From the NCBI GenBank assembly GCA_017534445.1, contig JAFXWC010000064.1:14769-78768 (forward strand): a stretch of DNA of 64,000 nucleotides. Reading direction: 5' to 3'. A model generated the notes under the pieces. It worked only from the letters and a program-made list of their open reading frames with translations. It was not told the origin of the DNA and ran no database searches. Source of the stretch: Treponema sp. Lineage in GTDB: Bacteria; Spirochaetota; Spirochaetia; Treponematales; Treponemataceae. Position 1 is the stretch's first letter, and each line of letters begins with the position of its first letter. Positions 9,113 to 59,438 of this stretch are shown one piece after another. The position numbers were made by a program, and so were the translations under genes.

Positions 9113-9197
9113 CTAGCCCCGATTGGAAGGGCGGGCGTAAGCCCGTTGCCGCCAGGCAATGGAGGGGGATGGGGCCCCCGGAACCCTGGAAAGCGGG
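9113..9197 (+). repeat. Structured intergenic repeat family 1 (Flavo-1-like core), copy A
   Basis: CTAGCCCCG-ATTGG-AAGGG...[hairpins]...CGGAA-CCCT-GGAAAG-CGGG. Confidence 0.8.
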
Positions 9198-9294
9198 TAC
9201 TACGATTCCTATTCTGTTCTTAAAAAGAACGCTCCCTTTTACCAAGGAAGCGCTCCAAAAAATCAAACAACAGAAAATGCTTAAGGTAACAATT

Positions 9295-11112
9295 TTAGCC
9301 GTTCAGCTTTTCAAGTTCTGCTTTTACGATTTCTGCAACTTTTGCCGAGGCATTTTCCAGAGGGATAAGCTGGGCATCCTGTTCGCTGCGGAGCTTTACT
9401 TCCACGTTTGGAAGGTTTTTGTCGCCCACAGTGATGCGTACCGGGAAGCCAATCAAGTCCATGTCGTTGAATTTTACGCCCGGACGTTCAGCCCTGTCGT
9501 CAAGAAGCACTTCGATTCCTGCGTTTGTAAGCTCTGCGTAGAGGCGGTCGGCGGCTTCCTTCATCTGGCCGTCGTATTTGATTGGGACGATTGCTACCTG
9601 GAAAGGTGCGGTTGTCATTGGCCAGAGGATTCCCTTGTCGTCGTGGAAGGATTCGATGATGCTTGCCAGTACGCGGTCAACGCCTATTCCGTAGCACCCC
9701 ATTGTTGGTACTGCGGCCTTTCCGTTTTCGTCAAGGTAGGTTACGCCCATGCTCTGGGTGTATTTTTTGCCAAGCTTAAAGATGTGGCCAAGCTCGTTGC
9801 CCTTTGTTGTGTGGTACTTGCCACCGCAGCCCGGGGTGCAGCAGGTGTCGCCCTCTTTTGCGGTGCGAACGTCTGTGTTAATCCATGCTGTAAAGTCGCG
9901 GCCTGGTTCAACATGCTTTAGGTGGTAGCCAGCTTTTCCGGCTCCGGTGATTGCGTCGTGCATGTCGTTTACGCTAAGGTCCTGCACGATTGGGCAAAGT
10001 GATGTGAGCGGGCCAACAAAGCCGTGTGGTGCCTGGGCAATTTTAAGTATTTCTTCGTCGTCGGCAAGGCATACTTCGCTTGCTTTTAGTGCGCCTGCAA
10101 GTTTTGCCTCGTTTACGTCTAGGTCTGCGCGGATTATTACGCATACGTAAGAAAGCGGGTAGAAGGCAAAGTCTCCGTCTTTTGTCTGCTTAAGGTCTTT
10201 GCAGTGGGGAGCCTTGCTTAAGTCCAGGGTTGAATTTATTACGCGGTAGATGAGTGCCTTGATAAAGGTTTTTGGCGTGGACTTAAAGAATTTTTCCATG
10301 TCTTCTATAGAAAAGACATTGGGTGTTTCCACAAGCTCTGGCTTTAGGTCTGTTGGCTTCTGGGGATTGCCGTCGTTGTCTACAGCCGGGTCTGCAAAAG
10401 ATGCTGCTTTTTCCACGTTTGCCGCATAACCGCACTTGGAGCAGAGGATAAGGGTGTCGTCTCCAACTGTGCTTTCCACCATGAATTCTTCGCTTCCGCT
10501 TCCTCCCATTGCGCCTGTGTCTGCCTTTACAGGAATCACCTTAAGGCCAAGGCGCTTAAAGATTCTAAGGTAGGCTTTTGCATAAGCCTGGTAGGTTTCG
10601 TCCAGGGATGCATCGTCCTTGTTAAAGGAGTAACCGTCTGCCATATTGAATTCACGGCCACGCATAACACCGTATCTTGGGCGGATTTCGTCGCGGTACT
10701 TTGTGTTTATCTGGTACATGTTGATTGGAAGCTGCTTGTAGCTTGTAAGGCCTGCCGCTGATATTGCAGTGAATGCCTCTTCTGCGGTTGGGCTAACAAC
10801 CATGTCCTGTTCACCGCGGTTTTTTGCCTTGAGCATCTGTGGGCCCATCGTGTCCCAGCGGCCACTCTGCTTCCAAATTTCGCCTGGAACAATTACTGTT
10901 GGCTTAAATTCGCATGCGCCGCTTCTGTTCCATTCTTCCTTGATGATGTTTTCCACTTTGCGGTAGGCGCGGAGTCCCAAAGGCATATATGTGTAAAGTC
11001 CGTTGCCGAGTTTGCGGATTAAGTCTGCCCTCATCATAAGCTGATGGCTAGAGATTATGGCTTCTGCAGGAGCTTCCCGCAGCGTGTGTAAAGGTAATTG
11101 TGATGTTTTCAT
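9295..11112 (-). CDS. proS: Proline--tRNA ligase, bacterial type with editing insertion
   Basis: MKTSQL..TLREAP.EA...SH.LM.RA; YRDEIRPRYGVMRGREF; GHIFKLG; MGCYGIG. Confidence 0.97.
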   Translation of the reverse strand: MKTSQLPLHTLREAPAEAIISSHQLMMRADLIRKLGNGLYTYMPLGLRAYRKVENIIKEEWNRSGACEFKPTVIVPGEIWKQSGRWDTMGPQMLKAKNRGEQDMVVSPTAEEAFTAISAAGLTSYKQLPINMYQINTKYRDEIRPRYGVMRGREFNMADGYSFNKDDASLDETYQAYAKAYLRIFKRLGLKVIPVKADTGAMGGSGSEEFMVESTVGDDTLILCSKCGYAANVEKAASFADPAVDNDGNPQKPTDLKPELVETPNVFSIEDMEKFFKSTPKTFIKALIYRVINSTLDLSKAPHCKDLKQTKDGDFAFYPLSYVCVIIRADLDVNEAKLAGALKASEVCLADDEEILKIAQAPHGFVGPLTSLCPIVQDLSVNDMHDAITGAGKAGYHLKHVEPGRDFTAWINTDVRTAKEGDTCCTPGCGGKYHTTKGNELGHIFKLGKKYTQSMGVTYLDENGKAAVPTMGCYGIGVDRVLASIIESFHDDKGILWPMTTAPFQVAIVPIKYDGQMKEAADRLYAELTNAGIEVLLDDRAERPGVKFNDMDLIGFPVRITVGDKNLPNVEVKLRSEQDAQLIPLENASAKVAEIVKAELEKLNG

Positions 11113-11269
11113 GCAAGGTATTATATAGAAAAGAATGGTTTTAGTTAATAGGGGGTGTCGGCATGTTTTTTGGGATTAAGTTCTTTGGACGATAGTCCTT
11201 TGGACGAAGTCCTGCTTGCTCTACCATTTTATTCTTTGGCTTAATTCGAGCGGACATTTCTTTGCGCCA

Positions 11270-11350
11270 CCCGCTTTCCGGGGTTCCGGGGGGCCCTACC
11301 CCCTCCATTGCTGTCGCAACGGCTGCGCCGCCCCTCCAATCGGGCGTAGG
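11270..11350 (-). repeat. Repeat family 1, copy B
   Basis: Reverse complement: CCTACGCCCG-ATTGG-AGGGG...CCCC-GGAAAG-CGGG. Confidence 0.8.
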
Positions 11351-11395
11351 AGGCAAGTGCATGTTTTCAATAATTGTATTGCAAAAATATGTTAA

Positions 11396-11525
11396 GAAAG
11401 CACTGGAATGGAGGCAGGAAACGCGGCAAAAAAGCATTTGCGCGGTGCGAGCGCAGCGAGTCAGATACCTTATATCCGCGCTCGGCTTTTTTGACGCGGT
11501 TCCTGCCGGGAATGGAAGTGCTTTC
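11396..11525 (+). repeat. Long interrupted hairpin, repeat family 2
   Basis: Nested stems gaaagcac/gtgctttc, gcaggaa/ttcctgc and caaaaaagc/gcttttttg with GGAATGGA and ACGCG internal loops. Confidence 0.65.
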
Positions 11526-11631
11526 GTGTTAATATTTATATTTACTAAGTTTCATTAAGATTTACATTTGCCTTCTACAGAGCTATCTCGCACACTGTAC
11601 TAGAAGAGTTTTTTTCTATATACTAGAGAAC

Positions 11632-12585
11632 ATGAATCTTAGGACAAAAGTTGTTTTTATTGTATATACTGTACTTGCCGCTTTTTTGCCAGCCTTTGCC
11701 GCAGAAAAGGGTGGTGAACAAAAGGCTGCTTTGGAAACAAAGGCACCAGAAGGAATCGTTTATGCAAACCTAATTCTAAGCGAAGACGGAAAAACCGTAA
11801 CCGGTACCGTGGACAAGGGAATTGCCACTGCCGAAATCCCGGAAGGTGTTACCGCTATTGCTCCCAAGGCCTTCTTTCACTGCGAAAACCTGCGCTCAAT
11901 CGTAATCCCGGAAGGGGTTGTCTCTATTGGTTCATGGGCCTTTTCCCACTGCCGCGCCCTGTCCGAAGTTTCCCTGCCAAAAAGCCTTTCCCGCATAGAA
12001 GCCGGAGCCTTTAGCTGGTGCGACAAGCTCTTTTTTATAGAATTTCCTGCAAAGCTTGGCTACATTGGTGCAAATGCATTCTATTCCTGCGCTTCCCTAA
12101 AAAGCGTTACCCTGCCAAAAGGAATTGCAAAGATAAGAAATTCAACTTTCTACGGCTGCCTAAAACTAGAACAGGTAATTTTCCCCCAAAGCCTTACAGA
12201 AATAGAAGAGAATGCCTTTGTAAACTGCGCATTCAAAAGCCTGGACTTTCCGCCAACACTGGTTCAGATTGGAAAGAGTGCCTTTTACCACTGCCCCCAG
12301 CTGCAAAAGCTAAGCATTCCTGCCTCCGTTGCAGAAATAGGTGCCAAGGCCTTTGCCCACTGCGAGTCTCTTGAAAAAGTTGAATGGAGCAGCCACAGCT
12401 GGCTAAAAGAAGTTGACGCGGATATATTCAGCAAGTCACCAGTCTACAAAAAGCTTAGCCTTCCAGATTCAATCAGCCTTGTAAACTACAATGCTCCGGA
12501 AGAAGAGGAACTTCCCCAAGAAGAACCTGTTCCCCCGGAACTGATGGGTGAGCAGGAAGAAGTCCCTGCAAAAAAGAAAAAGTAA
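11632..12585 (+). CDS. BspA-type (TpLRR/LRR_5) leucine-rich repeat exported protein
   Basis: Signal peptide; about 8 repeats of IP.GV..IG..AF..C..L. Confidence 0.9.
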   Translation: MNLRTKVVFIVYTVLAAFLPAFAAEKGGEQKAALETKAPEGIVYANLILSEDGKTVTGTVDKGIATAEIPEGVTAIAPKAFFHCENLRSIVIPEGVVSIGSWAFSHCRALSEVSLPKSLSRIEAGAFSWCDKLFFIEFPAKLGYIGANAFYSCASLKSVTLPKGIAKIRNSTFYGCLKLEQVIFPQSLTEIEENAFVNCAFKSLDFPPTLVQIGKSAFYHCPQLQKLSIPASVAEIGAKAFAHCESLEKVEWSSHSWLKEVDADIFSKSPVYKKLSLPDSISLVNYNAPEEEELPQEEPVPPELMGEQEEVPAKKKK

Positions 12586-12593
12586 GCCTTAGT

Positions 12594-12640
12594 GTGTCCC
12601 GCCCCTTATTTCGGGGTACAAGGGCCCCCCCCTTGAAAAT
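12594..12640 (-). repeat. Repeat family 3, partial copy
   Basis: Reverse complement ttttcaaggg...cccttgtaccccgaaataaggggcggg matches 14655-14696. Confidence 0.6.
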
Positions 12641-12653
12641 AGTTTTTAAAACA

Positions 12654-13349
12654 TCACATTCGGCTCTTAAGTTCCTGAACAAGGTCCTTAATGTTGTCCG
12701 TGTTGTCAACAGCCTGGCCGTTTACAATGTTAAAGTATAGCCCCGAATTATAATAGTAGATTTTGTATTCAACGGAATCTGTCTTTGGGTCAGGATTCAA
12801 AGGGCTCTTGTAAGTTGTAGATTCGCAGACAAGAACAAAGTTTGTGCCGGAAACCTTGTAAAGGGTTGCCACGTATTTTCCCATTTCTCCGCAAAGGTTC
12901 ATCTCCGCATAAAGGCTTTCCGAATCTGATTTGTAAACGCAGATTTCTCCGCCTTCCGCAGAATGGCCGTTGTAGTCGTAAGTCTTTCGTGAAAGGTCCA
13001 GCTTTGGATAGTAATTTATTTGGTTCAGTTCGTTAAGGTAGGTCTGCATAACATTGCCGCTTTTTTGCTTAACAAGCAGGTCGTAAACATCTTTGTTAAC
13101 AACGCCGTTCACAGAAAATCCCGCAAGCTTTTGGAATGCCTTTACGCCTTTTTCCGTCTTTGGACCAAACCATCCGTCCGCTTCCCCAACTTCCGTAAAG
13201 CCAAGATTGTTAAGCGCAACCTGAACAGCACGGACATCTTCTCCGTTCATGCGGGATTTTTTTAGCATCAAAAGCCTGGAATAATTCTGGGCAGTGGCAA
13301 AAAATGCCGCAAATAAAACCAACAGTGTAAGAATTGAAAAACGCTTCAT
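12654..13349 (-). CDS. Secreted peptidoglycan-binding (PG_binding_1) domain protein
   Basis: Signal peptide; GEDV..VQ.AL..LGF...ADGWFGPKTE.GVKAFQ. Confidence 0.85.
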   Translation of the reverse strand: MKRFSILTLLVLFAAFFATAQNYSRLLMLKKSRMNGEDVRAVQVALNNLGFTEVGEADGWFGPKTEKGVKAFQKLAGFSVNGVVNKDVYDLLVKQKSGNVMQTYLNELNQINYYPKLDLSRKTYDYNGHSAEGGEICVYKSDSESLYAEMNLCGEMGKYVATLYKVSGTNFVLVCESTTYKSPLNPDPKTDSVEYKIYYYNSGLYFNIVNGQAVDNTDNIKDLVQELKSRM

Positions 13350-13483
13350 AATTTACCTCTTGGCTTAATCATAAATCCAATCAGCGCAGAATTCAAGATT
13401 CTGTTTGTCTTTTGCATTATTTTTTGGACGGCAGCTTTTTGTAAATGAATTATGCCTTTTGCAAACAAGAGTTCATCGTGGAA

Positions 13484-13564
13484 CGGCTTTCCAGGGTTCC
13501 GCCTTTCGGCTCCATTCCTCCGCTGCGCTCCGGAATGGCTTCGCCACCCTTCCAATCCGGCCTC
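13484..13564 (-). repeat. Repeat family 1, copy C
   Basis: Reverse complement: GCCGG-ATTGG-AAGGG...CCCT-GGAAAG-CCG, with a compensatory outer stem. Confidence 0.8.
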
Positions 13565-13581
13565 ATGCCTTTTGCAAAAAA

Positions 13582-14625
13582 TTACATCAGAGCCATTTTA
13601 ATTTCTTCCAGAACGGCAAGGGCATTCATTCCTGTTTGCAATGTTGAGCGAAGTTCCGCCTTTCCGTCCAAGAAGTCCACTGCATTCTGAATCATGTTTG
13701 CAAAGTAGAGCGTCTTTTTTGGCCTTTTGAATTTTATTTCTTCCAGCGATTTGAATCCCGTGTAGAGCTTTGATTCCTTTGACATATAAATATTGAAGAA
13801 TCCGTTTCCAATCAGTATGCGGCCTTTTGTTCCTCGGATGTCCACCTCAAAGCCAAAGTATTTGCTTCTTCCGCTTATGCTTATTGTTACGCAGGGGACG
13901 CTTGGCAAAGAGTAGCTGGCGCTTACGTTGCGCACTGCTCCCTTTTCGTCCCGCCAGATTCCGCTTACACTTGGCGAGCTTAGAATTGCTTTACCTTCAT
14001 TTAGCTTTTCATTTTTTTGCAGGGCTTCAAGAAAGAAAAGTACAATGTCCACAAGATGGGTTCCGTCGTGAATAAGGCTGTAGGCACCTGTAGCTTCTTC
14101 GCTTTTGTCGTAGACTTTCATTCCAGAATAAAGGCTTGCGTTTATGCTTTGTATTTCCCCAATTTGCGTAAGGTATTCTGCTGCAAGCTTGTAGTCCAGG
14201 GCAAAGCGGCGCTCGTGGTTTACAAGGACGGGCACCTTGTTTTCTTCTGCGGCATTTTTTAGCTGCAAGGCTTCTTCTGTGTTAAGGGCAACAGGTTTTT
14301 CCAGAATTAAAAGGCGGGGTTTGTTCTTTATGGCTTCCAGTGCAATTTTTATGTGGGCATCTTCGTTTACCGCAACGGTAACAATGTCTGTCTTGCATTC
14401 AGAAAAAAGCTTTTGTGCGCTTAAAAAAAGTTTGCATCCTTTGTTTGCCTTTCCCCACTTTTGCAAGGCTTCTTCGTCCGTGTCGCATCCGGCAATAAGC
14501 TGAATTCTTTTGTTTGCATTAAGAGCCATTGTGTGCGATGCAGGCTGTTCACGCAATTTGTCGTAGCCCAGGGTCCAACCAATTCTTCCGCAGCCTACAA
14601 GCGAGGCAGTGTATTTGTTCTGCAT
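13582..14625 (-). CDS. Gfo/Idh/MocA family oxidoreductase
   Basis: VGCGRIG Rossmann motif, LEKPVA, VNHERRF, HDGTH..D. Confidence 0.9.
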   Translation of the reverse strand: MQNKYTASLVGCGRIGWTLGYDKLREQPASHTMALNANKRIQLIAGCDTDEEALQKWGKANKGCKLFLSAQKLFSECKTDIVTVAVNEDAHIKIALEAIKNKPRLLILEKPVALNTEEALQLKNAAEENKVPVLVNHERRFALDYKLAAEYLTQIGEIQSINASLYSGMKVYDKSEEATGAYSLIHDGTHLVDIVLFFLEALQKNEKLNEGKAILSSPSVSGIWRDEKGAVRNVSASYSLPSVPCVTISISGRSKYFGFEVDIRGTKGRILIGNGFFNIYMSKESKLYTGFKSLEEIKFKRPKKTLYFANMIQNAVDFLDGKAELRSTLQTGMNALAVLEEIKMALM

Positions 14626-14654
14626 AAGCAAATTATATAGTAAGGATTAATTAT

Positions 14655-14776: not shown

Positions 14777-14866
14777 AAAAACCCAATTACGATTAGAAGT
14801 AATAATTAGAACAGAGAGACTCTGGAACTTGACAAATGAAAAAAATTGTCTTGTAATAAAAATACG

Positions 14867-15862: not shown

Positions 15863-15864
15863 AA

Positions 15865-19202: not shown

Positions 19203-19221
19203 TTCAATTTATTGTTTGCAT

Positions 19222-19448
19222 AGCGGGGGGCGTTACGGGGGGCTTGCCACCCGTAGAGGGGGTAGCGGAAGACACGACAAAGCGGAGCAAATGACGGAAG
19301 AGGCTTGTTTTGAAAAAAAAATGTATTTGGGTATTGGCACAGACTCTGAAACTAGTTCAGGGTGACGGTTGTTTGTTTTTAAATTTTTGCCTCTTACGGC
19401 ATTTGTGGAGCGACTCGTGGCTGTAGCGAGGGGGAGACTTCCCCCTCC
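19222..19448 (+). repeat. Composite structured element: long hairpin related to family 2, with a GTCA-type REP nested at 19342-19366
   Basis: Pairs cacga/tcgtg, caaatg/catttg and aagaggc/gcctctt; the loop contains gactctgaaactagttcagggtgac. Confidence 0.55.
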
Positions 19449-19512
19449 TTGGATGCGAGTATTAAAGGCGTGCGCTATTGCAAGTGTATGCTTTTTTCTA
19501 TAAAATAAGCGT

Positions 19513-24728: not shown

Positions 24729-24835
24729 AGTTTAAACTATAGCATGATGTCTTTCTTTTGGAAAGGGCATTTTTCTTGAATAGTTTTCTGGAGCGTATTG
24801 CTTTTTTTACTGCCCCTTCGGGATGCCTCGTGTTA

Positions 24836-24907
24836 CGGGCTTTTCGGGGCTTGCCCTCGCGGCCGGTGCTACGCACGCACTTCGTGCCCCCTACAATCCC
24901 GGCTAGG
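24836..24907 (-). repeat. Repeat family 1, copy D
   Basis: Reverse complement: CCTAGCCGGG-ATTGT-AGGGG-GCAC(GAA)GTGC-GTGC(GTA)GCAC...CCCC-GAAAAG-CCCG. Confidence 0.75.
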
Positions 24908-24949
24908 ATTTCTTTGCTTTAGGATTTGTTCAAGAAAGAATTCTTTTGT

Positions 24950-27648: not shown

Positions 27649-27666
27649 TAGACAGAGCAAAAACAA

Positions 27667-27776
27667 CCTACGCCACCGTGGAGGGGCGGGCTTTGCCCGT
27701 TGCCGTAGGCAATGGAGCCGAAGGGCGGAACCCCGGAAGGGTGGTGACGCAAAGCCGGGGGTGAGGACACCCCCGG
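27667..27776 (+). repeat. Repeat family 1, copy E, plus 3' hairpin
   Basis: CCTACGCCACC-GTGG-AGGGG...CCCC-GGAAG-GGTGG, then ccgggggtg/cacccccgg. Confidence 0.75.
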
Positions 27777-51180: not shown

Positions 51181-51214
51181 AAAAAATTCCTCTTTGCAGG
51201 GTGCTTGAGACAGA

Positions 51215-51424
51215 GCCTAGCCCCGATTGGAAGGGCCGCGAAGCGGTTGCCGTTAGGCAATGGAGCGCTAGCGGAACCCTGGAAAGCGGGTAAAAATGCC
51301 CTCCTTGGCATTTTTACCCGCAAGTTTTCTTCCGAAAACTTGCCCATGTAAATGGAAAACAGATGACGCACCCTCCATGGTGCTGCTTGTTTGCGGTATA
51401 TTGAAAATGCCAAGGAGTTTACCC
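51215..51424 (+). repeat. Repeat family 1, copy F with a 3' extension of about 130 bp
   Basis: Core 51215-51290; extension homologous to the reverse complement of 59237-59366. Confidence 0.8.
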
Positions 51425-51558
51425 GGACACGGAGTGACGGGTACAGTTTTACCATTAAGCTTGCTCCAAAAGAAAAAAATATTTACCCTCAATAGAATAG
51501 AAAGAAAAGCCGCTTTCTGATATAATGAATCCGCTGATTTTATTAACAGGAGACAGAT

Positions 51559-54500
51559 TTGGCGGACATACATATTTTTCCGGAAGCCCCGGAAGGAACA
51601 CCGGAGAGTGACTTTGTTCACCTGCACGTGCATTCGGACTATTCGCTTTTGGACGGTGCTTCAAAGCTGGACACGCTGATTGCAAAGGCAAAGCGGCTGA
51701 ACATGAAGGCCCTTGCGCTTACAGACCACGGCAACATGTTTGGCGTTCTGAACTTTGAGCATATCTGTCATGCTAATGGCATAAACCCTGTGTGCGGCGA
51801 GGAATTTTACGTTGCATACAAGGACCACACGGAAAAAACAGACATTCCTTTTGGCCGGAACGGTCATCATGCCCACAACTTTCACCTTATCCTGCTTTGC
51901 AAAAATCAGACCGGCTACAAGAACATGTGCTGGCTTTCTTCCATTGCTTTTCAGGAAGGCCTTTACTACGGCAAACCCCGCATAGACTTTGAGCTTTTAA
52001 AGCGCTACCACGAAGGTATAATCTGCCTTTCTGCCTGTATTCAGGGGGAAATTCCCCAGCTTTTGATGAACGGACGCACGGAAGAGGCCTACCAGGTTGC
52101 AAAGGAATACAAGGAACTTTTTGGGGCGGACCATTACTATATAGAAATCCAGAGCCACGGTTTGGAAGACCAGATTAAGGTTGCGCCTCTTTTGGTAAAG
52201 CTTGCAAAGGACCTGGACATCCCCATTGTCCTTACAAACGACGTTCACTATGCAAACCAGGATGATGCCGAAGCCCAGGATGCCCTGCGCTGCATTGGAT
52301 TCAAGAAGCTTTTGGATGAACCCCACCAAAAGATGGGCGGTGACCAGAACATTGCAGAATGGTACCTTAAAACTGCGGACGAGATGAAGAAAATCTTTCC
52401 CCAGTGGCCAGAGGCTGTTGAAAATACAAAGAAAATCGCGGCCATGTGCGACCTTACGATTCACCAGTACAAGACCCAGGAACTTAAGGACTGCCTTCCC
52501 CGCTTTGAGCTGCCTGCCGAATTCCGCACCCATGGTGATGACTACAAATCCGACCAAGATGACTACATGCGCTACATCGTAGAAGAGGGGCTTAAGAAGC
52601 GCTACAAGGAGATTACCCCGGAAATCCGTGAGCGTGTTGAATATGAACTTGGAATCATCTTTAAGATGGGTTTTTCCGGCTACTTTTTGATTGTTTGGGA
52701 ATTCATCAACTGGTCCAAGTCTACCTATGACAATGTGAACAAAATTCCCAAGCCTTACATTCCTATTGGGCCGGGACGTGGTTCGGGTGCAGGTTCCGTA
52801 GTTGCCTACTGCATGACCATTACGGACATTGACCCCTTCCGCTACAAGCTGATTTTTGAACGCTTTTTGAATCCTGAACGCGTTTCCATGCCGGACTTTG
52901 ACGTTGACATGGACTTCGACTACAGGCAGGACATTATCCAGCATACCCGTGATCTTTACGGTGACCCCCAGGTTGGCCACATTGTTACATTTGGAACCCT
53001 AAAGCCAAAGAACTGTATTGCAGACGTTGGACGCGTGCTTAACATTCCGCTTAACGAAGTTGCAATGCTAAAGAAGTGCATTCCCGACAACCCCAAGGCC
53101 AAGCTTAAGGATGCCTTTACTCCGCCGGACGAAAAACACCCGGACAACGGGCAGCTTATTCCCTACAAGGACGACCCAAAGTACAAGAGGCTTTTTGAAC
53201 TTGCGTCCAAGCTTGAGGGCGTTAACCGCAACACGGGTCTCCATGCTTCGGGTATGGTAATTGGTCTTACCGCCTTGCCGGACTGGGCACCTGTATTCAA
53301 GGACCCAAAGACCGGGGAAGTTGGCGTTCAGTATACAATGGATATAATTGAGCCCTGCGGTCTTGTAAAGATGGACTACCTTGGGCTAAAGACGCTTTCC
53401 CTTATCCGCTATGCAGAGAACATAATCAACAAGCACAAGAAGGAAGGGGAGCCTGATTTTGTTACCGCAAACGTAAGCGAGTCTGACGAAAAGACCTTTG
53501 ACCTTTTCTGCCGGGGAGACACGGTTGCAGTCTTCCAGTTTGAATCTCCGGGTATGCAGAAGATTTTGCGCCAGGCACAGCCCAGACGCTTGGAAGAACT
53601 TGTCGCCTTGAACGCGCTTTACCGCCCCGGCCCAATGGATTACATTCCCCAGTATATTGAAGGAAAGTGGCATCCGGAGACAATCCATTACCCGGACCCC
53701 TGCCTTGAGGATATCCTAAAGGAAACATACGGTGTTATGGTTTACCAGGAGCAGATTATGCAGGTAAGCCAGAAGATTGCAGGGTTCAGCCTGGGTGCGG
53801 CAGACATGCTCCGACGCGCCATGGGTAAGAAGAAGCCTGAAGTCCTTATGGGAAAAAAGAAGGACTTTGAAGAAGGTGCAATCAAGAACGGCTTTACCAA
53901 GGAACACGCAGACGAAATTTTTGAAATAATGGTTCCTTTTGCGGGCTACGGCTTTAACAAGAGCCATGCGGCGGCGTATTCTGTTGTTGCATACCGCACC
54001 GGTTACCTAAAGGCCCACAAGCCTGCTGAATTTATGGCGGCAAACCTTACCAACGAAATTACTTCTACGGATACGCTGCCTGTTTATATTGAAGAAGCTC
54101 GCAAGATGGGCATTCCGGTGGACGCTCCTGATGTTAACCGCTCAGACGTAATATTTGACGTAGTCAACGGACACATAGTCTTTGGCCTTAAGGGAATCAA
54201 GGGCATGGGAGAGGGTGCTGCAAGTGCTATTGTAAAGGAGCGTGAGGCAAACGGCCCTTTCAAGTCTTTTGACGACTTTATTTCGCGCATAAGTTTCCAG
54301 GAAGTTAACAAGAGGGCAATAGAAGTTCTTATAAAAACCGGTGGATTTGACAAGCTGGACAAGAACAGGGCAACCCTAATCCTTAACTACGAAAAAGCCA
54401 TTCAGTATGAAGAAAAGAAGCGTCTTGGCAGCGACAGCGGTCAGGCTTCTCTCTTTGAAGATGCCGGCATAAAGGAATTTGCTGACTTTAAGTATGAAGA

Positions 54501-55212
54501 AGTTGAAGAAATGCCCAAGATGGAGCTTCTTAATATAGAAAAGGAACTGATTGGCTGCTACGTTTCGGGGCATCCACTGGACGAATGGAGGCACGCCATA
54601 GAAAAATGTGCTACAATCTCCAGCGAGAACATAGAAAAGGCTGGCAAGGAAGACAAGGCGGAAAAAGCAGCTCTTGAAGCTAGCGGAAGAAAGCCCTGGC
54701 AGATGAAGAACACAGGAAGAAGCTATGTTGCCATTGGAATGATTCAGGGTCTTAGGCAGATACTTACAAAGAAGGGCGACCAGATGTGCTTTGCCAAGCT
54801 TGCAGACTTTAAGGGTACAATAGACATTACCTTCTTCCCAAAGACATGGGAGCAGCTAAAGGACAAGATTCAGGATGAAGGTGTATACGCCTTTAAGGGC
54901 AAGGTTGACGGTTCTAGGGAAACACCAAGCCTGCTTGTGGACACAATGGAAGACCCCAAGGCTCTTGAAGCAAAGTCTATTTCTGCCGTACACATAAAGA
55001 TGCGGGAGGATTTTTCTTCCATGAAAGAAATAAGCCCTTTGCGGGATTTTTTATTTGGCGCAAACGGCAATTGTGTAGTATATTTTCATATAAGCGTAAA
55101 TGGGGCTCCTTTTACGGTAAAAGCAAACCAGCAGATGCAGGTTCCTTCCAATTCTGATTTTATACAGTCTTTGAAGGATCAAAACCTTGTGGAAGATGTC
55201 TGGTGTGAATAA
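51559..55212 (+). CDS. dnaE: DNA polymerase III alpha subunit
   Basis: FVHLHVHSDYSLLDG PHP domain, GPGRGSGAGS, PDFDVD, YGFNKSHAAAY; TTG start with AGGAG RBS. Confidence 0.97.
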   Translation: MADIHIFPEAPEGTPESDFVHLHVHSDYSLLDGASKLDTLIAKAKRLNMKALALTDHGNMFGVLNFEHICHANGINPVCGEEFYVAYKDHTEKTDIPFGRNGHHAHNFHLILLCKNQTGYKNMCWLSSIAFQEGLYYGKPRIDFELLKRYHEGIICLSACIQGEIPQLLMNGRTEEAYQVAKEYKELFGADHYYIEIQSHGLEDQIKVAPLLVKLAKDLDIPIVLTNDVHYANQDDAEAQDALRCIGFKKLLDEPHQKMGGDQNIAEWYLKTADEMKKIFPQWPEAVENTKKIAAMCDLTIHQYKTQELKDCLPRFELPAEFRTHGDDYKSDQDDYMRYIVEEGLKKRYKEITPEIRERVEYELGIIFKMGFSGYFLIVWEFINWSKSTYDNVNKIPKPYIPIGPGRGSGAGSVVAYCMTITDIDPFRYKLIFERFLNPERVSMPDFDVDMDFDYRQDIIQHTRDLYGDPQVGHIVTFGTLKPKNCIADVGRVLNIPLNEVAMLKKCIPDNPKAKLKDAFTPPDEKHPDNGQLIPYKDDPKYKRLFELASKLEGVNRNTGLHASGMVIGLTALPDWAPVFKDPKTGEVGVQYTMDIIEPCGLVKMDYLGLKTLSLIRYAENIINKHKKEGEPDFVTANVSESDEKTFDLFCRGDTVAVFQFESPGMQKILRQAQPRRLEELVALNALYRPGPMDYIPQYIEGKWHPETIHYPDPCLEDILKETYGVMVYQEQIMQVSQKIAGFSLGAADMLRRAMGKKKPEVLMGKKKDFEEGAIKNGFTKEHADEIFEIMVPFAGYGFNKSHAAAYSVVAYRTGYLKAHKPAEFMAANLTNEITSTDTLPVYIEEARKMGIPVDAPDVNRSDVIFDVVNGHIVFGLKGIKGMGEGAASAIVKEREANGPFKSFDDFISRISFQEVNKRAIEVLIKTGGFDKLDKNRATLILNYEKAIQYEEKKRLGSDSGQASLFEDAGIKEFADFKYEEVEEMPKMELLNIEKELIGCYVSGHPLDEWRHAIEKCATISSENIEKAGKEDKAEKAALEASGRKPWQMKNTGRSYVAIGMIQGLRQILTKKGDQMCFAKLADFKGTIDITFFPKTWEQLKDKIQDEGVYAFKGKVDGSRETPSLLVDTMEDPKALEAKSISAVHIKMREDFSSMKEISPLRDFLFGANGNCVVYFHISVNGAPFTVKANQQMQVPSNSDFIQSLKDQNLVEDVWCE

Positions 55213-55244
55213 AAATTAAATAAAAATTGATTTAAGAGGTTTGT

Positions 55245-55838
55245 ATGCCAAGAACAATATTTTCTATAGTATCCTTTGTTGTTTCTGTTTATGCGCTAAT
55301 GTGCTTTTTGCGCATACTGCTAACATGGGTTCCATCCCTTTCCTACAGCCGCTTTTCGCGCTTTTTGGGTAAGATTTGCGACCCTTACCTGAACATTTTC
55401 CGTGGAATCAAGTGGCTAAGGCTGGGCAGCTTTGACTTTTCTGCCGCACTGGGCTTGTGCATACTGGGTGTTCTTGCCACCATGCTTTCAAGTTTTGCGG
55501 GAAGGACTGCAATCACACCGGCTCATGTAGTTCAGATGATTCTTCAGCTTGCATGGTCAGTCATTACTTCAATCATAACCTTCCTTATCATCATCCTTGC
55601 GGTAAGGCTTATAGTTCTTTTTGTGCGTAAGGGTCAGTATTATTCAAGCCCCATACTTGACCAGATAGACGCTTCAATTTCTCCCCTTGTCTACAACATA
55701 GCTAGAACCTTTACCGCCGGAAAGAAAGTTAGCTACACAACGGCACTTATAATAGCGATAATTGCCCTGGCCGCAATAATTATCCTTGGTTCCATAGCAG
55801 TTTTCCTTATTTCTGGAATACTGGCAGGTATTTCCTGA
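55245..55838 (+). CDS. YggT-family membrane protein
   Basis: RILLTW.P, I.DPYL..FR, DFS. Confidence 0.85.
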   Translation: MPRTIFSIVSFVVSVYALMCFLRILLTWVPSLSYSRFSRFLGKICDPYLNIFRGIKWLRLGSFDFSAALGLCILGVLATMLSSFAGRTAITPAHVVQMILQLAWSVITSIITFLIIILAVRLIVLFVRKGQYYSSPILDQIDASISPLVYNIARTFTAGKKVSYTTALIIAIIALAAIIILGSIAVFLISGILAGIS

Positions 55839-55847
55839 TAAAAACGG

Positions 55848-58088
55848 ATGAAGCTTTCCGAACTGGGAATTCCGCTAGAAAGTCTTGCGGGTGTTGGAAA
55901 ATCAAAGGCATCTCTTTTTAGCCGGTTGAACATCTTTACCGTTGGCGACCTTTTGGGAACCTATCCCCGTGACTGGGAAGACAGGACAAAGGCATGCACC
56001 CTTAGCCAATACGCCCAGAACTACGGAAAGGTTCACACTGTATGCAAGGTTATTGCCCACGACTTTTTTGGCTACGGCAAGATGAAGACCCTAAAAATAG
56101 CCGTGACCGATGGAAGTTCAAACGCATTCCTTATTGCATTTAACCGTCCATTTTTGCAAAAATCACTGCCGGAAGGAAGCATAATAAGCGTAACAGGCAA
56201 ATTTGAACTTAGGTACAATACGCTGCAGGCATCATCTTTTGAAGCAGAACGGCTTGCCTATTCGGGGGAACTTGCAGACTGGCAGGACAAACCCATACCC
56301 GGAAGCGGAGTTTTGCCGGTTTACCCGCTCACAGAAGGCATAACGCAAAAAATTTACCGCAAGATTGTTGCATCAGCATTGCAGCAGTACGGAAAGTCTT
56401 TGGAAGATGATTTACCCGCTTTGATAATCCAGGAGCGGAAGCTTTTGCACAAGACACAAGCGCTGGCTTTTATTCATCAGCCCAAGGACATAAGCCAGGT
56501 TCTTCTTGCAAGGCGTACCCTCATTTACGAAGAGCTTTATTTTTTTGAATACAAGATGGCAGAGCACACCCTTCGCCACAGGGGCAGCCTTCCTTCTATA
56601 GAACAAGCGGCGGTTTTTGATGCTGCCAAGAATTCTTCTGCGGAAGAAAAAGCAGGTCTTGCACAAGGCATTCCAAGCGCAGCCTCTTATTTTTCAACAC
56701 CGGATGTAAGCAAAAGTGAATTTATGGAATCCCTTTCCCCCAAGCAAAAGCTGCTTGTAGAAAGGCTTCCCTTTGAATTTACCCAGGGGCAGATGGCGGC
56801 AATTTTCCAGATGAACCGCGACATAGACAAAAGCCAGGACGAACTTAACACCCTAAAAAACAGACCGGACGCTTTGGAAAAACAACCATTTTCCATGCAG
56901 AGGCTCTTGCAGGGAGATGTTGGTTCTGGAAAGACCCTAGTTTCCTTTATGCTTTGCCTTAGAACCATAGACTACGGCGGACAGTGCGCACTTATGGCAC
57001 CAACGGAACTTCTTGCAAGACAGCATGCCGAAAACGCAGCCAGCTTGCTTGAGCCAATCGGAGTAAAAGTTGCCTTTCTTACCGGAAACCTTAAGGCGGC
57101 AGGAAGACAGGCTTTGCTTAACGCCCTAAAAGACGGAAGCGTAAACTTTGTAGTGGGAACACACGCGCTTTTTAGCCGCAACATCCAGTACGCAAACCTT
57201 CAGCTTGCGGTAATAGACGAGCAGCACCGCTTTGGAGTTACCCAGAGGGAATCAATACTTGCAAAGGGACGCATCTCTTCTGGCGAATACAGCCACACGC
57301 CAGACCTTCTTATGATGAGCGCAACACCTATCCCGCAGACGCTTGCCCTAACCGCATTTGGAGACTTGGACGTAAGCACAATACACAGCATGCCGCAGGG
57401 AAGGCTTCCGGTAAAGACCTACCTTAGCGTTATGGGAAACGAAAGGAATGCCTACGAAGCAGTACGCAAAGAGCTTATGGCTGGCCACCAGGCATATTTT
57501 GTATACCCAAGAATCGGGGAAGACGAGCCTTTGGAGCAAAATGGAACAGAAAACCAGGGCAACCTAAAGTCCGCACAGGAAATGTTCAATTTTCTTTCCA
57601 AAGAAGTCTATCCTACATTCAAGTGTGCGCTTGTGCACAGCAAGGTGGAAGAAGAAGAAAGCCGTCAGATTCTTGAAGACTTTAGGCAGAACAAGATACA
57701 GGTTCTGGTTGCAACAACGGTTGTGGAAGTTGGCGTGGACGTGCCGAATGCAACATGCATCGTAATAGAGCACGCAGACAGGTTTGGGCTTGCAGAACTT
57801 CACCAGCTTAGGGGTAGGGTTGGAAGAAACAGTCTGCAAAGCTATTGTTTCCTTATCTACGGAAAAAACATTACCCAAGTAGGAATTGAGCGTCTAAAAG
57901 CCCTGCACCAGACAAACGACGGCTTTAAAATAGCAGAAGAAGACCTAAGGCTCCGTGGCCCGGGAGAAGTTTCGGGAACAGCCCAGTCAGGCTACCTGAC
58001 GCTTGGAATTGCAGATTTGGCCCGCGACAAAGACATTCTTATGCAGGCCCGTTACGATTCGTTTGAAATGCTAAGGCGTTCAAGCTAA
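55848..58088 (+). CDS. recG: ATP-dependent DNA helicase RecG
   Basis: RLLQGDVGSGKT, MAPTELLA.QH, IDEQHRFG, MSATPIP, LHQLRGRVGR, DLRLRGPG. Confidence 0.97.
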   Translation: MKLSELGIPLESLAGVGKSKASLFSRLNIFTVGDLLGTYPRDWEDRTKACTLSQYAQNYGKVHTVCKVIAHDFFGYGKMKTLKIAVTDGSSNAFLIAFNRPFLQKSLPEGSIISVTGKFELRYNTLQASSFEAERLAYSGELADWQDKPIPGSGVLPVYPLTEGITQKIYRKIVASALQQYGKSLEDDLPALIIQERKLLHKTQALAFIHQPKDISQVLLARRTLIYEELYFFEYKMAEHTLRHRGSLPSIEQAAVFDAAKNSSAEEKAGLAQGIPSAASYFSTPDVSKSEFMESLSPKQKLLVERLPFEFTQGQMAAIFQMNRDIDKSQDELNTLKNRPDALEKQPFSMQRLLQGDVGSGKTLVSFMLCLRTIDYGGQCALMAPTELLARQHAENAASLLEPIGVKVAFLTGNLKAAGRQALLNALKDGSVNFVVGTHALFSRNIQYANLQLAVIDEQHRFGVTQRESILAKGRISSGEYSHTPDLLMMSATPIPQTLALTAFGDLDVSTIHSMPQGRLPVKTYLSVMGNERNAYEAVRKELMAGHQAYFVYPRIGEDEPLEQNGTENQGNLKSAQEMFNFLSKEVYPTFKCALVHSKVEEEESRQILEDFRQNKIQVLVATTVVEVGVDVPNATCIVIEHADRFGLAELHQLRGRVGRNSLQSYCFLIYGKNITQVGIERLKALHQTNDGFKIAEEDLRLRGPGEVSGTAQSGYLTLGIADLARDKDILMQARYDSFEMLRRSS

Positions 58089-58090
58089 AA

Positions 58091-59128
58091 TCATATTGTC
58101 CAGTCAAAGTCACCGCTTACAATAACATCCTTGTGCCCCTTAACAATCTGCCCAATCACGTAAGCGTTTATCTTGTTTTTCTTCATGTGCTTGATTATGT
58201 CTTCTGCATGTTCCTTCTTTGCAACAACCGTAAGGCCAACCCCAAGGTTAAAGGTTCTGAGCATTTCTTTTTCCGAAACATTTGCAGTCTTTTTTATCAA
58301 TTTAAAAATATCCAGAATCTGGTATTTTGAAGCATCAATGCTTGCAGAAAGATTGTCCGGCAGAATGCGGTTAAGGTTTTCGCAAATACCGCCGCCTGTA
58401 ATGTGGGCAAGACCCGTTATCCAGTTTGTAGGGAACAAATCCTTTAGTGCCTTGTAGTAGCACCTGTGCGGTTCCAAAATAACATCGATGAATTTTTTCT
58501 TCCCGATTTTTGCATCCATAATCTGGGGGTATTTTTTCATCACCTTTCTTACAAGAGTGTAACCGTTCGTGTGGATTCCGCTTGATTCAAGAGAAATTAC
58601 TACGTTGCCTTCTTTGATTTTTGAACCGTCTATGATTTTGCTTTTTTCTACAATGCCAACAATGCTGGAGGTTAGAATATATGTGCCTGCTTTTAGAACG
58701 CCGGGCTGCTCAGAAGTTTCGCCTCCTGTAAGCACACATTCCTGCTTCTTGCATGCGTCTGCAACAGACTTTACAATTTTGTTTATGTCTTCCTTATTCA
58801 TCTTTCCGCAGATGATTGCATCCTGAACCGTAAGCGGTCTTGCACCCATAACGATGCAGTCGTTTATAAGATGATTTATCATGTCGTAGGAAACGTTTTC
58901 CAGCTTACCGTATTGGGCTGCCAAAAGCTGCTTTGAACCTGGCTCCTCTGTCTTTAAAACAAGAACCGGATTTTTGTACTCCTTAAATTTGATGTCGTAC
59001 AAAGAAGAAAATGCGCCAATTTTATTCAGCACCCTTTCGTTGTCTGTATTCAAGGCCTTAGCCATTGCTTTTTTTGTCTCGTTTGCCAAGTCAATGTTAA
59101 CATCATACTTAAGATTTTTTTTCATCAT
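58091..59128 (-). CDS. purM: Phosphoribosylformylglycinamidine cyclo-ligase
   Basis: NDC...GA.PL, GGETSE.PG, SSG.HTNGY, AHITGGG..ENL.R, TFNLGVG. Confidence 0.93.
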   Translation of the reverse strand: MMKKNLKYDVNIDLANETKKAMAKALNTDNERVLNKIGAFSSLYDIKFKEYKNPVLVLKTEEPGSKQLLAAQYGKLENVSYDMINHLINDCIVMGARPLTVQDAIICGKMNKEDINKIVKSVADACKKQECVLTGGETSEQPGVLKAGTYILTSSIVGIVEKSKIIDGSKIKEGNVVISLESSGIHTNGYTLVRKVMKKYPQIMDAKIGKKKFIDVILEPHRCYYKALKDLFPTNWITGLAHITGGGICENLNRILPDNLSASIDASKYQILDIFKLIKKTANVSEKEMLRTFNLGVGLTVVAKKEHAEDIIKHMKKNKINAYVIGQIVKGHKDVIVSGDFDWTI

Positions 59129-59236
59129 TCGTCTCCATTTGCGGTCTTAGGCTTAATTTCCATTATACAATAATTTAAAGCTCTTGCAAGCTAAAGCACA
59201 TTCTTCTTTAAATCCTTCTCTGGAGCAGTCTGAATG

Positions 59237-59438
59237 GTTAAACTGCCCTTGCCATTTTTTCCGTCAAACAAGCAGCGCCATGGAGGGCGCGTCGTTTGTT
59301 AGCATAAGAGGTTGCGGATTTTCGGCAGAAAACCGTGATAAAAAATGGCAGGGAGGCCATTTTTATCGGGCTTTCCGGGGCTTGCCCTCTCGGCCGGTGC
59401 TGCGCACGCGCTACGCGCCCCCTCCAATCCCGGCTAGG
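59237..59438 (-). repeat. Repeat family 1, copy G with 3' extension
   Basis: Reverse-complement core CCTAGCCGGG-ATTGG-AGGGG...CCCC-GGAAAG-CCCG, plus an extension like copy F. Confidence 0.8.

Follow-up and report, generated by a model that had tools for sequence, protein, structure and literature searches.

A 64,000-nt stretch of a Treponema genome (hereafter the window) carries seven diverged copies of a short structured intergenic element, family 1. Its presence raises the question of whether the element acts as RNA or as folded single-stranded DNA, and of how it came to be spread. An earlier note had located the copies and proposed a common multi-branched fold for them.

Copies in the window and their fold

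A hidden Markov model built from the seven sequences and a covariance model (R1), each used alone, recovered exactly the seven copies that the note had placed in the window and no further ones, with R1 E-values from 1.7e-14 to 9.5e-23. Copy 1 (9108..9205, plus strand; R1 69.1 bits, E 3.9e-17) lies in the spacer of two minus-strand genes (8033-9085 and 9295-11112) and is antisense to both. Copy 2 (11262..11354, minus; 77.3 bits) is upstream of a gene of 605 aa, and copy 3 (13475..13570, minus; 70.3 bits, E 1.7e-17) combines a CGG/CCG P1 with a long H2. The CTA lead that the note had ascribed to six of the seven copies is indeed missing only from this one, at 13484. Copy 5 (27663..27752, plus; 87.9 bits, E 9.5e-23) has a CCACC/GGTGG P1 and the loop GTGGAG/GGAAGG, and copy 6 (51212..51298, plus; 80.0 bits, E 2.2e-20) is canonical. 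Copies 4 (24828..24911, minus; 60.2 bits, E 1.7e-14) and 7 (59359..59442, minus; 61.3 bits, E 8.3e-15) are of sub-type B, which in copy 4 has GTGC/GCAC as H2 and CG..AAG at the base of H3 in place of TGGA..GGAA.

The proposed plan holds in the window copies. Three hairpins (H1, H2 and H3) and a long irregular closing stem meet in a linker-free four-way junction. The stem runs from P1 through T-A, G·A, G|G and A·G to P2 (RGGG/CCCY); P1 occurs as CCCG/CGGG, CGGG/CCCG, CGG/CCG or CCACC/GGTGG, the internal loop between P1 and P2 is ATTGGA/GGAAAG, and the TGGA/GGAA motif returns at the base of hairpin 3. The H1-H2 linker has zero bases in 146 of 147 genome copies, and the terminal inverted pairing is the 4-bp P1 alone. 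Lead and tail classes are linked (mutual information z 10.3), but no single consistent pairing could be written for an outer P0 helix, which we rejected. ARAGORN found 0 tRNA-like genes in the window, and the junction, which lacks linkers as well as any T- or D-loop signature, is not that of a tRNA-like element.

Pairing is kept while stem sequences vary freely, in line with the note's view that structure rather than sequence is selected. In the 147-copy alignment, which was fitted to the covariance model and so leans towards structure, 76.2% of cells were paired as against 56.7% after shuffling (the observed value was reached by 0 of 500 shuffles), 27 of 30 pairs showed double changes, and the covariation score was 0.394 as against 0.084 or less in slid controls. 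A plain MAFFT alignment of 34 copies led to the same result (0.277, compared with 0.080 after shuffling and 0.065 or less after sliding). Covariation is very strong both within the genome and across species. The 147 copies hold 70 distinct H1, 98 H2 and 90 H3 sequences, and the hairpins assort independently (mutual-information z 0.6 for H1-H3 and 0.2 for H2-H3, with 14 to 22 for the outer parts).

Two copies adjoin a further repeat, family 2. One family-2 repeat of about 160 nt (51292..51452, plus; nhmmer 166 bits, alignment of four long copies) adjoins copy 6 at its 3' end, matches it in orientation and takes the 3' strand of P1 into its first hairpin; another (59236..59364, minus; nhmmer 70.6 bits, adjacency rule) abuts the 3' end of copy 7, again in the same orientation. 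Family 2 joins family 1 in one orientation, forming a mosaic of repeat types. It also gives a sub-threshold Rfam TD-2 match at 51284-51377 (minus; 35.1 bits, gathering threshold 48.7).

Strand-specific motifs

Most hairpin tips take the form of C(GNA)G or C(GNNA)G mini-hairpins. The note had remarked on many GNA triloops, and genome-wide such a triloop caps H1 in 96 of 147 copies; of the 139 simple H1 loops, 115 have C as the closing base. Among the 147 copies GNYA loops number 4 in H1, 33 in H2 and 18 in H3, and GNRA loops 13, 19 and 45, respectively. The motif GCGNAGC is found on the top strand in 141 of 228 copies and on the bottom strand in 0; GCGNNAGC is found on the top strand in 127 and on the bottom strand in 1. 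In the first zipper, the columns are conserved as T-A in 144 of 147 copies, G·A in 145, G|G in 96 and A·G in 146, and the second zipper (TGGA/GGAA at the base of hairpin 3) is conserved in like manner. Among 3206 helix cells there were 3084 Watson-Crick, 17 G·T and 19 A·C combinations, that is, no G·T excess. Under DNA parameters the top, purine-rich strand folded more stably than the bottom one in every one of 144 copies.

Both motifs are described as unusually stable single-stranded DNA folds in the available parts of PMC13037366 and PMC11014236. The former gives melting temperatures of 76.5 C for d(GCGAAAGC) and 39 C for r(GCGAAAGC), and places GCGNAGC and GCGNNAGC mini-hairpins at single-strand phage and plasmid priming sites, those of phage G4 and plasmid ssiA among them, and at a phage N4 promoter; the latter describes a guanine zipper formed by TGGAA·TGGAA, with folding by the purine strand only. 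Judged by sequence and predicted pairing, the H1 and H3 tips of family 1 carry the same mini-hairpin motifs, on one strand only, and its two internal loops the zipper motif of human satellite III d(TGGAA)n. Mini-hairpins and zippers are known as isolated oligonucleotides or from eukaryotic satellite arrays, whereas family 1 is a dispersed bacterial repeat with a junction; the portions of the mini-hairpin and zipper literature available to us contain no description of this motif combination around a four-way junction in such a repeat. Mini-hairpins confined to one strand, two zipper loops, no G·T excess and no orientation bias together point to single-stranded DNA as more likely than a non-coding RNA for the folded element, and so favour the DNA fold that the note had offered as one option.

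Placement, distribution and variation among strains

The 3.08-Mb genome contains about 254 copies (124 plus, 130 minus) of an element of about 90 bases (range 85-130 nt), totalling 23,028 bp, with 236 of the 254 near full length. The genome-wide family that the note had predicted is therefore real; its density of about one copy per 9 kb fits the window (7 per 64 kb), but the genome has about one per 12 kb. Spacing is even, with at most 6 copies in any 20 kb. Family 1 is effectively all intergenic, the 12 copies 'inside' crude ORFs of at least 250 aa all lying at ORF extremities. Placement is indifferent to the neighbouring genes: 60 copies in tandem spacers are sense and 59 antisense, and 62 lie in convergent and 61 in divergent spacers. 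Orientation relative to GC skew (125 versus 101) reveals no clear replication-strand bias. Of the 147 copies from this genome, 105 bear a CCTAC/CCTAG lead (complement GTAGG/CTAGG) at one end; copies in other species do not have it and begin GCG..AGG.

Family 1 is found in 18 of 24 same-genus genomes, at 1 to 56 or more copies, and is absent from six, four of which are 92-94% complete. Of 150 Treponemataceae genomes sampled, 78 have it, as do 15 of the 24 genera; copy number ranges from 1 to hundreds and varies more than 100-fold. In other families of the order 1 of 16 genomes matches, weakly. A conserved 'master' locus was sought at 18 sites of low-copy genomes and rejected, the neighbours being unrelated (TetR, amylase, ABC exporters, Trep_Strep, pyruvate kinase, hsdS/hsdM, groES and others). 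Phage carriage was likewise rejected, a viral collection giving 1 match.

The spacer after the 605-aa gene is occupied by family 1 in the source species and in 0 of 29 relatives. In the 10 relatives whose flanks were read, a spacer followed by the same downstream gene measures 16 to about 120 nt and carries a plain hairpin or other repeats. Presence is thus lineage-specific, and we read it as gain. Within the species, copy 2 differs among five loci whose neighbouring protein is 99-100% identical: the variants comprise loop changes, a 46-nt module that replaces the H2 loop and another H1/H2/H3 set, and the new H2 module separates strains with a 100% identical neighbouring protein. In one of the five, copy 2 is missing and the upstream region is wholly different. 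Strains of the species differ by the exchange of entire hairpins. Copy 1 was unchanged in all four conspecific metagenome loci that reach that far. Orthologous copies in low-copy genomes of sister species are identical or 1 nt apart.

No precise empty site with target duplication was seen among the conspecific loci or in contigs from public sequencing runs. DNA contigs from these runs often end at family-1 copies and no contig of any kind cleanly skips an element, stretches without coverage not being counted as evidence. Two joints (11341>27725 and 13516>11316) connect different copies, look like repeat-induced assembly joins and were set aside.

Candidate mobilisers, known repeats and competing readings

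The note had stated that the mobiliser is not in the window, and this extends to every family searched in the source assembly: Y1_Tnp (PF01797), RVT_1 and TnpB (PF07282) gave no match, although at 89.8% completeness, and with repeats often missing from assemblies, absence is not proof. Y2_Tnp (PF04986) had no match in the source genome either, but its control gave none in any genome, so that this blank carries no information. Y1 (PF01797) genes occur in 7 of 24 relatives but in none of three high-copy relatives, and R1 found nothing better than E 0.036 near six of them; since they do not follow copy number and the element does not flank them, we rejected them, and the REP/RAYT route that the note had suggested for checking finds no support. 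The one IS110 transposase gene, at a contig end, adjoins no family-1 copy. The multi-copy proteins found in the genome are FGE-sulfatase, PD-(D/E)XK_2, flagellin and one unassigned family. Four of the 10 PD-(D/E)XK_2 loci lie within 600 nt of a copy (compared with 19% of genes), two of these four being one duplicated upstream unit. This link is not significant and the counts in the 24 relatives are discordant (for example, 23 loci and 0 elements, 1 and 56, 1 and 38), so these 'transposases' were also rejected as the mobiliser.

The Flavo-1 likeness drawn by the note found no support in Rfam 15: cmscan of the whole window gave 0 matches at gathering and 8 at E<=10, none overlapping any copy. 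Literature on Treponema REP, MITE, REPIN, RAYT, intergenic repeats and the core strings yielded no description of family 1; the candidate lists of PMC8040213, whose available part names Treponema motifs adjoining ribosomal protein genes, may contain one. Family 1 resembles REP, BIME and REPIN sequences in comprising hundreds of short, GC-rich, structured extragenic repeats in both orientations that form mosaics with other repeats, and likewise in its very unequal numbers between related species. REPs, however, are single imperfect palindromes of 20-40 bp (PMC3733652, available part), whereas family 1 measures 85-130 nt, arranges four helices about a junction and has purine-purine loops that are conserved. 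REPs carry an unpaired GTAG or CGTC tag at one end; the lead of family 1 in this genome, with its complement GTAGG/CTAGG, recalls such a tag, but copies in other species do not share it. Family 1 lies in divergent spacers as often as in convergent ones, and, unlike REPIN-RAYT systems, it has no RAYT in the source genome and flanks none in relatives.

TD-1 and TD-2 of T. denticola (28 and 36 copies) are listed as probable RNAs in the available text of Weinberg et al. 2007 (PMC1950547), where they appear, like family 1, as multi-copy structured Treponema motifs with covariation, modular stems and no coherent gene association. Family 1 differs from them in architecture, matches neither model at E<=10, and occurs in 15 of 24 sampled genera, whereas TD-1 and TD-2 are, as far as that source goes, genus-restricted and from one species. 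The ends of IS200/IS605 elements, PATEs and phage or plasmid initiation signals share with family 1 a strand-specific DNA fold and a short conserved motif 5' of it, but they depend on a Y1 HUH transposase or on the context of a replicon, neither of which was found here, and they are simple hairpins, not a junction. They show lagging-strand bias, which is not seen in family 1. Integron attC sites form arrays in one orientation beside intI, whereas family 1 is dispersed over the contigs on both strands.

We give about an even chance to the reading of family 1 as a REP-like repeat that folds as a single strand and, being non-autonomous, would rely on a putative mobiliser. The top strand would fold as single-stranded DNA, the element would spread via a single-stranded intermediate, and a putative protein would recognise the two zipper loops; as a selfish repeat it would be inserted in spacers of any type and tolerated there. 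Diversification may proceed by whole-hairpin replacement, through recombination of copies across the conserved junction sequences and/or arm-to-arm correction by template switching while the strand is unpaired, which would leave every arm Watson-Crick with no wobble intermediates. Several observations weigh against a selfish repeat: the failure of the mobiliser search in an 89.8%-complete assembly, the lack of a precise empty site with target duplication, the invariance of copy 1 in four strains, and an intact proportion (236/254) that is unusual for junk. The near-identical copies at orthologous sites in sister species would fit a conserved host function too, and contigs from two RNA libraries run through copy 1 and its neighbour genes, so that this copy at least is present in RNA preparations, though DNA carry-over is possible.

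Those contigs bear on the main rival, a structured RNA, which we consider rather unlikely: either a small non-coding RNA gene family or an mRNA element acting wherever it is transcribed, for example as an exonuclease block or processing-site mark, as REP in E. coli operons. Covariation, internal loops that are conserved and stems that are modular and vary in length count as classic RNA criteria, which also placed TD-1 and TD-2 among probable RNAs (PMC1950547, available part), and among the simple loops of H3 the GNRA type is the most frequent. Some copies sit within operons (between two ABC-3 permease genes; between hsdS and hsdM), a T-run forms a terminator-like 3' tail in several low-copy genomes, and a terminator-like family-2 hairpin directly follows 56 copies. 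Yet with no gene-orientation preference half of the copies would be read as the weaker, pyrimidine-loop strand, and divergent spacers are as frequent as convergent ones. Independent low-copy tandem sites are similarly divided (about 6 sense, about 4 antisense), and a dedicated terminator was rejected for want of any orientation rule in source or low-copy genomes. No conserved promoter-like block lies upstream, information being at background about 10 nt before P1; H1 and H2 are dominated by GNA triloops and GNYA tetraloops; and no Rfam family matches. G·U does not exceed A·C in frequency (17 versus 19 of 3206 cells), but, against the DNA reading, RNA helices that are short and GC-rich may lack G·U pairs as well. 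A host-domesticated DNA site, where a structure-specific protein would bind at many places on the chromosome to the folded strand or to a cruciform extruded there, seems distinctly improbable to us; its roles might include priming or replication restart on exposed single strands, single-strand binding protein exclusion, nucleoid organisation or stalled-fork protection. The near-perfect maintenance of 236 of 254 copies, the even spacing and the persistence at orthologous sites and in 15 of 24 genera would suit it, as would two same zipper motifs per element (for a dimeric binder) and the mini-hairpin type known from G4, ssiA and N4 (PMC13037366, available part). However, six of 24 same-genus genomes do without the element, which is thus dispensable, and others have 1 to 5 copies; copy number varies more than 100-fold, the GC-skew bias that lagging-strand priming predicts is missing, and with hypervariable hairpins only the scaffold could be recognised. 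Least probable of all, in our judgement, is that the copies are inactive relics of an extinct element, their arms complementary only through a mutation bias (arm-to-arm correction in quasi-palindromes) and inter-copy gene conversion. The lack of a mobiliser among the families searched, helices that are Watson-Crick only and the mosaic assortment of hairpins agree with this, but correction would erase the non-Watson-Crick zipper positions and G...A loop ends, which 96 to 146 of the 147 copies retain on one strand; the species-specific expansions and the new H2 module between strains with a 100% identical neighbouring protein also speak against relics.

Building on the reading as a single-strand-folding repeat, we tentatively propose, as a possibility well short of even, that family 1 represents a new class of single-stranded-DNA-based mobile or protein-loading element of Treponemataceae with a putative structure-specific partner protein. 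It would be a natural 'DNA origami' module that brings a linker-free four-way junction together with GNA/GNNA mini-hairpins and a pair of guanine zippers, copied or maintained without Y1/HUH, reverse transcriptase or TnpB and exchanging its hairpins as cassettes.

Many bacteria have small interspersed repeats. Family 1 is unusually informative on their spread and function because of its complex and very well-supported fold, its vocabulary of stable single-stranded DNA motifs and the lack of a RAYT or IS partner among those sought. It breaks gut Treponema assemblies and makes spacers strain-variable, so annotation pipelines should mask or label it. Its presence in cultured oral species, one with a complete genome, makes direct tests possible; if it acts as folded DNA, it would allow guanine zippers and mini-hairpins to be studied in a natural setting in vivo and could lead to a new structure-specific protein or route of transposition.

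Copy number, placement and fold

Family 1, the folded intergenic element described in the earlier note, is a real repeat of ~90 nt. Its seven stretches in the window, which we number by position as copies 1–7 (9108–9205(+), 11262–11354(−), 13475–13570(−), 24828–24911(−), 27663–27752(+), 51212–51298(+) and 59359–59442(−)), are mutually alike, and an HMM built from them recovers exactly those seven in the window. The same HMM marks 228 places in the window's assembly (3.08 Mb, 77 contigs), and a second HMM, from 147 aligned copies, brings the total to 254, comprising 236 near full length and 18 partial. These sum to 23,028 bp, a density of ~1 copy per 12 kb, with six copies in the densest 20 kb.

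In effect every copy is intergenic; 12 lie within crude ORFs of at least 250 aa, each of them at an ORF extremity. With ORFs of at least 120 aa taken as genes, 62 copies occupy convergent, 61 divergent and 119 tandem spacers, compared with a background of 353, 356 and 1630 by the same criterion. The plus strand holds 124 copies and the minus strand 130. Orientation is indifferent to transcription and replication: in tandem spacers 60 copies share the direction of the genes and 59 oppose it, and with respect to local GC skew the counts are 125 and 101. Sequence conservation stops ~10 nt before the outermost helix, P1 (lead GCCTAC/G), and no promoter-like block was seen upstream of that limit.

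The structure had been described correctly. From the outside inward, the outer stem consists of P1 (4 bp), the series A·G, T-A, T-A, G·A, G|G, A·G, and a second helix, P2 (4 bp), the irregular stretch between the two helices being continuous. Because the three hairpins, H1, H2 and H3, adjoin P2 directly without an unpaired base, family 1 amounts to a single long stem that closes a perfect four-way junction; the H1–H2 joint has zero bases in 146 of 147 copies, and at the remaining three joints the model columns adjoin each other. The series T-A, G·A, G|G, A·G recurs at the base of H3.

Covariation is strong against shuffled and slid controls in both larger alignments that we built, as the earlier note had anticipated. 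In a MAFFT alignment of 34 copies of similar length, with the structure written by hand, 75.8% of cells pair versus 62.8% when shuffled (none of 500 shuffles reached the observed value), and the covariation score is 0.277 versus 0.080 shuffled and at most 0.065 with a slid partner. A scan of the window and 40 genome stretches (814,496 bases) with a family-1 covariance model, R1, yielded 147 copies, with 76.2% of cells paired versus 56.7% shuffled, double changes in 27 of 30 pairs and a score of 0.394, the controls giving 0.111 (shuffled) and no more than 0.084 (slid); H1 pairs in 98.9% and its four pairs all covary. The 147-copy alignment is fitted to R1 and so leans towards the model, and the MAFFT alignment agrees with it; since copies in one genome are related, alignment cells are not independent events.

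Several sub-types share this plan. P1 occurs as CCCG/CGGG, CGGG/CCCG, CCGCC/GGCGG or AGGG/CCCT, and the loop positions beside it change together with it (column 16/79, for example, is T-A, C-G, G·G or A·C). Type B, to which copies 4 and 7 belong, has a different H3 base. A module, ..TGAGC..TCGAA.., lies inside H2 of 18 copies, on the same strand every time, and has 36 further genome occurrences outside family 1. Written ..GGT(C)CCTGAGC NNN GTCGAAGG.., it also stands alone in a spacer of a relative (L198, genome G066), and on account of these outside and solitary occurrences we regard it as a nested mini-element.

Known RNA families and an adjoining repeat

Family 1 is neither Flavo-1 nor in Rfam. 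The likeness to Flavo-1 suggested in the earlier note fails, as the window gives no Rfam 15 match at gathering level and none of the eight matches at E≤10 overlaps a copy; ARAGORN found nothing. A weak TD-2 match (35.1 bits versus a gathering score of 48.7) lies just 3' of copy 6, outside family 1, in DNA belonging to a second repeat. This family 2 (~160 nt, 93 nhmmer hits genome-wide) is represented in the window at 51292–51452(+), abutting copy 6, and at 59236–59364(−). In 56 cases it directly follows a family-1 copy on the 3' side, both oriented alike; in 5 it lies on the 5' side of one, and opposite orientations never occur. It contains several hairpins together with a long-range pairing that covaries (CTCCTTGGCATTTT ... 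AAAATGCCAAGGAG), and its first hairpin re-uses the P1 3' strand of family 1. TD-1 and TD-2 occur in multiple copies, have no assigned function and are described from Treponema denticola alone (PMC1950547); family 1 does not belong with them. Elsewhere in the window, an Ysr141 match at 56881–57068(−) (36 bits, E 3.8e-6, far under the gathering score of 196) lies inside a 746-aa ORF (55848–58088) and is probably conserved coding sequence rather than an sRNA.

The probable folding strand

Several independent features point to one particular strand of family 1, and to DNA. Helix cells are Watson–Crick in 3084 of 3206 cases, with 17 G·T and 19 A·C, and the wobble excess usual in RNA families is absent. 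On one and the same strand, all three hairpins (H1, H2 and H3) have loops whose first base is G and whose last is A: GNA triloops cap H1 in 96 of 147 copies, a C-G pair closes 115 of 139 simple H1 loops, and GNYA tetraloops (4/33/18 in H1/H2/H3) are nearly as common as GNRA (13/19/45). Of 228 copies, 141 carry GCGNAGC and 127 carry GCGNNAGC on the top, purine-rich strand; the bottom strand has 0 and 1, respectively. Both are 'mini-hairpin DNA' sequences, a class known at the phage G4 priming origin, plasmid ssiA and a phage N4 promoter, and d(GCGAAAGC) is given as melting at 76.5 °C and its RNA counterpart at 39 °C (PMC13037366). The d(GNA) loops are reported to depend on the closing pair (PMC3201870).

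Two conserved internal loops set 5'-TGGA-3' opposite 5'-GGAA-3'. In the first (n=147) we counted T-A in 144, G·A in 145, A·G in 146 and G opposite G in 96, the last position otherwise holding T·G (19), G-C (18) or T-A (9); the second loop is alike. This pairing scheme matches the one known from d(TGGAA) repeats as the 'guanine zipper', where the purine strand alone folds (PMC11014236), a likeness of sequence and inferred pairing. Predicted stability with DNA parameters is higher for the top strand than for its complement in every one of 144 copies (−17.5 versus −14.5 kcal/mol); with RNA parameters the same holds in 137 of 144. The indifferent orientation of the copies and the lack of a promoter-like block beyond the lead count among these features too.

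Distribution, strain variation and possible origin

A scan by exact pattern, covering prokaryotes with a single genome for each species, returned at least 119 stretches, and R1 confirmed all 81 pattern matches in 80 of those loci. Cross-species covariation is 0.305 versus 0.082 shuffled, informative for the hairpins only because the search pattern fixed the core letters. Titles among the matches listed are Treponema, Spirochaetaceae, Spirochaetia or Treponemataceae, bar two, and named carriers among them are T. zioleckii, T. socranskii subsp. paredis ATCC 35535, T. pectinovorum ATCC 33768 and T. parvum ATCC 700773 (complete genome). The two exceptions, L071 and L148, are bins of one 'cleanbin' series with the titles Parabacteroides distasonis and Anaerovoracaceae; mis-binning of Treponema contigs seems a likelier cause than transfer. 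By R1, family 1 is present in 18 of 24 same-genus genomes (1 to at least 56 copies each; six had none) and in 78 of 150 sampled genomes and 15 of 24 genera of the host's bacterial family, with a weak match in one of 16 genomes from other families of the order; R1 genome counts are lower bounds, because only 29–150 candidates were scored per genome. A viral collection gave one match. The window stretch itself is present in animal gut metagenome runs, bovine and sheep among them (20 rows, 11 studies), one of which may be its source, and its genome has flagellin genes.

Strain variation could be followed around a 605-aa gene (9295–11112), flanked by copy 1 on its downstream side and by copy 2 on its upstream side. 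In 29 same-genus relatives, R1 found no family-1 copy in the spacer that separates this gene from the next one downstream; among 10 whose flanks were inspected, those with the same downstream gene have a spacer of 16 to ~120 nt with a plain terminator-like hairpin or other repeats. Upstream of the gene, G066 has a shorter variant without H3, oriented as copy 2, with different flanks. In five metagenome loci the protein is 99–100% identical, and copy 1 is identical in all four that reach it. Copy 2 varies by strain: one has a single loop change; another has the H2 loop GACA changed to GCTA together with an H3 loop change; a third has a 46-nt module in place of the 3-nt H2 loop and an H2 stem longer by 6 bp; a fourth differs in the loops of all three hairpins, the H2 stem, the tail and the 5' flank; and in a fifth the upstream region is wholly different and without family 1. 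The 147 copies hold 70 distinct H1, 98 H2 and 90 H3 sequences. Hairpins assort independently (z 0.6 for H1–H3, 0.2 for H2–H3), and the outer parts are tightly linked (z 14 for lead–P1, 21.9 between the two loop strands). Hairpins may thus be swapped or re-formed whole while the scaffold stays conserved, which would also explain covariation without wobble intermediates. In low-copy complete genomes, copies share a site between sister species, identical or 1 nt apart, and their neighbours are unrelated.

Other repeats were noted as well. At 11165–11215, ~17-nt tandem units (GGACT.TCGTCC.A..) differ in number among conspecific strains. A long inverted repeat at 11400–11520 (GCACTGGAATGGAGGCAGGAAACGCGGC ... 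GCGGTTCCTGCCGGGAATGGAAGTGC) has high depth in a sheep-gut DNA run and a 23-nt insertion at its centre in one conspecific strain. The conspecific metagenome locus L244 carries an insertion of 71 nt (L244:3320–3390) that the window lacks, immediately behind the stop codon of the 605-aa gene; its hairpin, CATTCCCGC..GCGGGAATC, has a similar counterpart in the same spacer of another species (L203) and probably represents another small repeat family. At 19220–19450, a GC-rich repeat has conserved ends (~19250–19270 and ~19425–19445) and a hypervariable middle, and contigs of all four public runs compared bridge the ends over 145–154 nt; their short inserts differ, and the summed depth is very high.

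Among the families searched in the 89.8%-complete assembly and in relatives, no mobiliser of family 1 was found. The assembly gave no match to Y1_Tnp, RVT_1 or TnpB, and the Y1 genes of relatives are not flanked by family 1, so the HUH/RAYT linkage that the earlier note had suggested looking for did not emerge. Those Y1 genes occur in 7 of 24 relatives, are missing from three high-copy genomes and have counts that do not follow family-1 counts. The assembly's only IS110 gene (C21:104114–104560(−), on the window's contig, outside the window) lies at the contig end, away from any copy. PD-(D/E)XK_2 'transposase' genes occupy ten loci whose linkage to copies is not significant, and their counts in the 24 relatives do not follow family-1 counts. 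Two near-identical ones (C1:5270–6525 and C29:34950–36290 of the window's assembly) have a common upstream unit of ~100-nt tandem repeats and an inverted type-B copy.

That family 1 is a structured RNA we consider doubtful. Contigs of two RNA libraries cross copy 1 and its neighbour genes (X15 8000–9813, X16 8472–9292); we count these contigs against a pure DNA reading, noting that DNA may be present there and that they show neither strand nor ends. Against an RNA stand the helices, which show none of its customary wobble excess. A domesticated DNA-binding site, as a third account, strikes us as improbable.

Literature searches, whose scope excluded the supplements of PMC8040213, found no published description of family 1. 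By the tests applied it belongs neither to REP/RAYT nor to the IS200/IS605 derivatives, and it works most like interspersed repeats of the REP/BIME type. We hold it an even prospect that this repeat is non-autonomous and folds as single-stranded DNA, with a putative partner and with turnover of its hairpin cassettes still going on.
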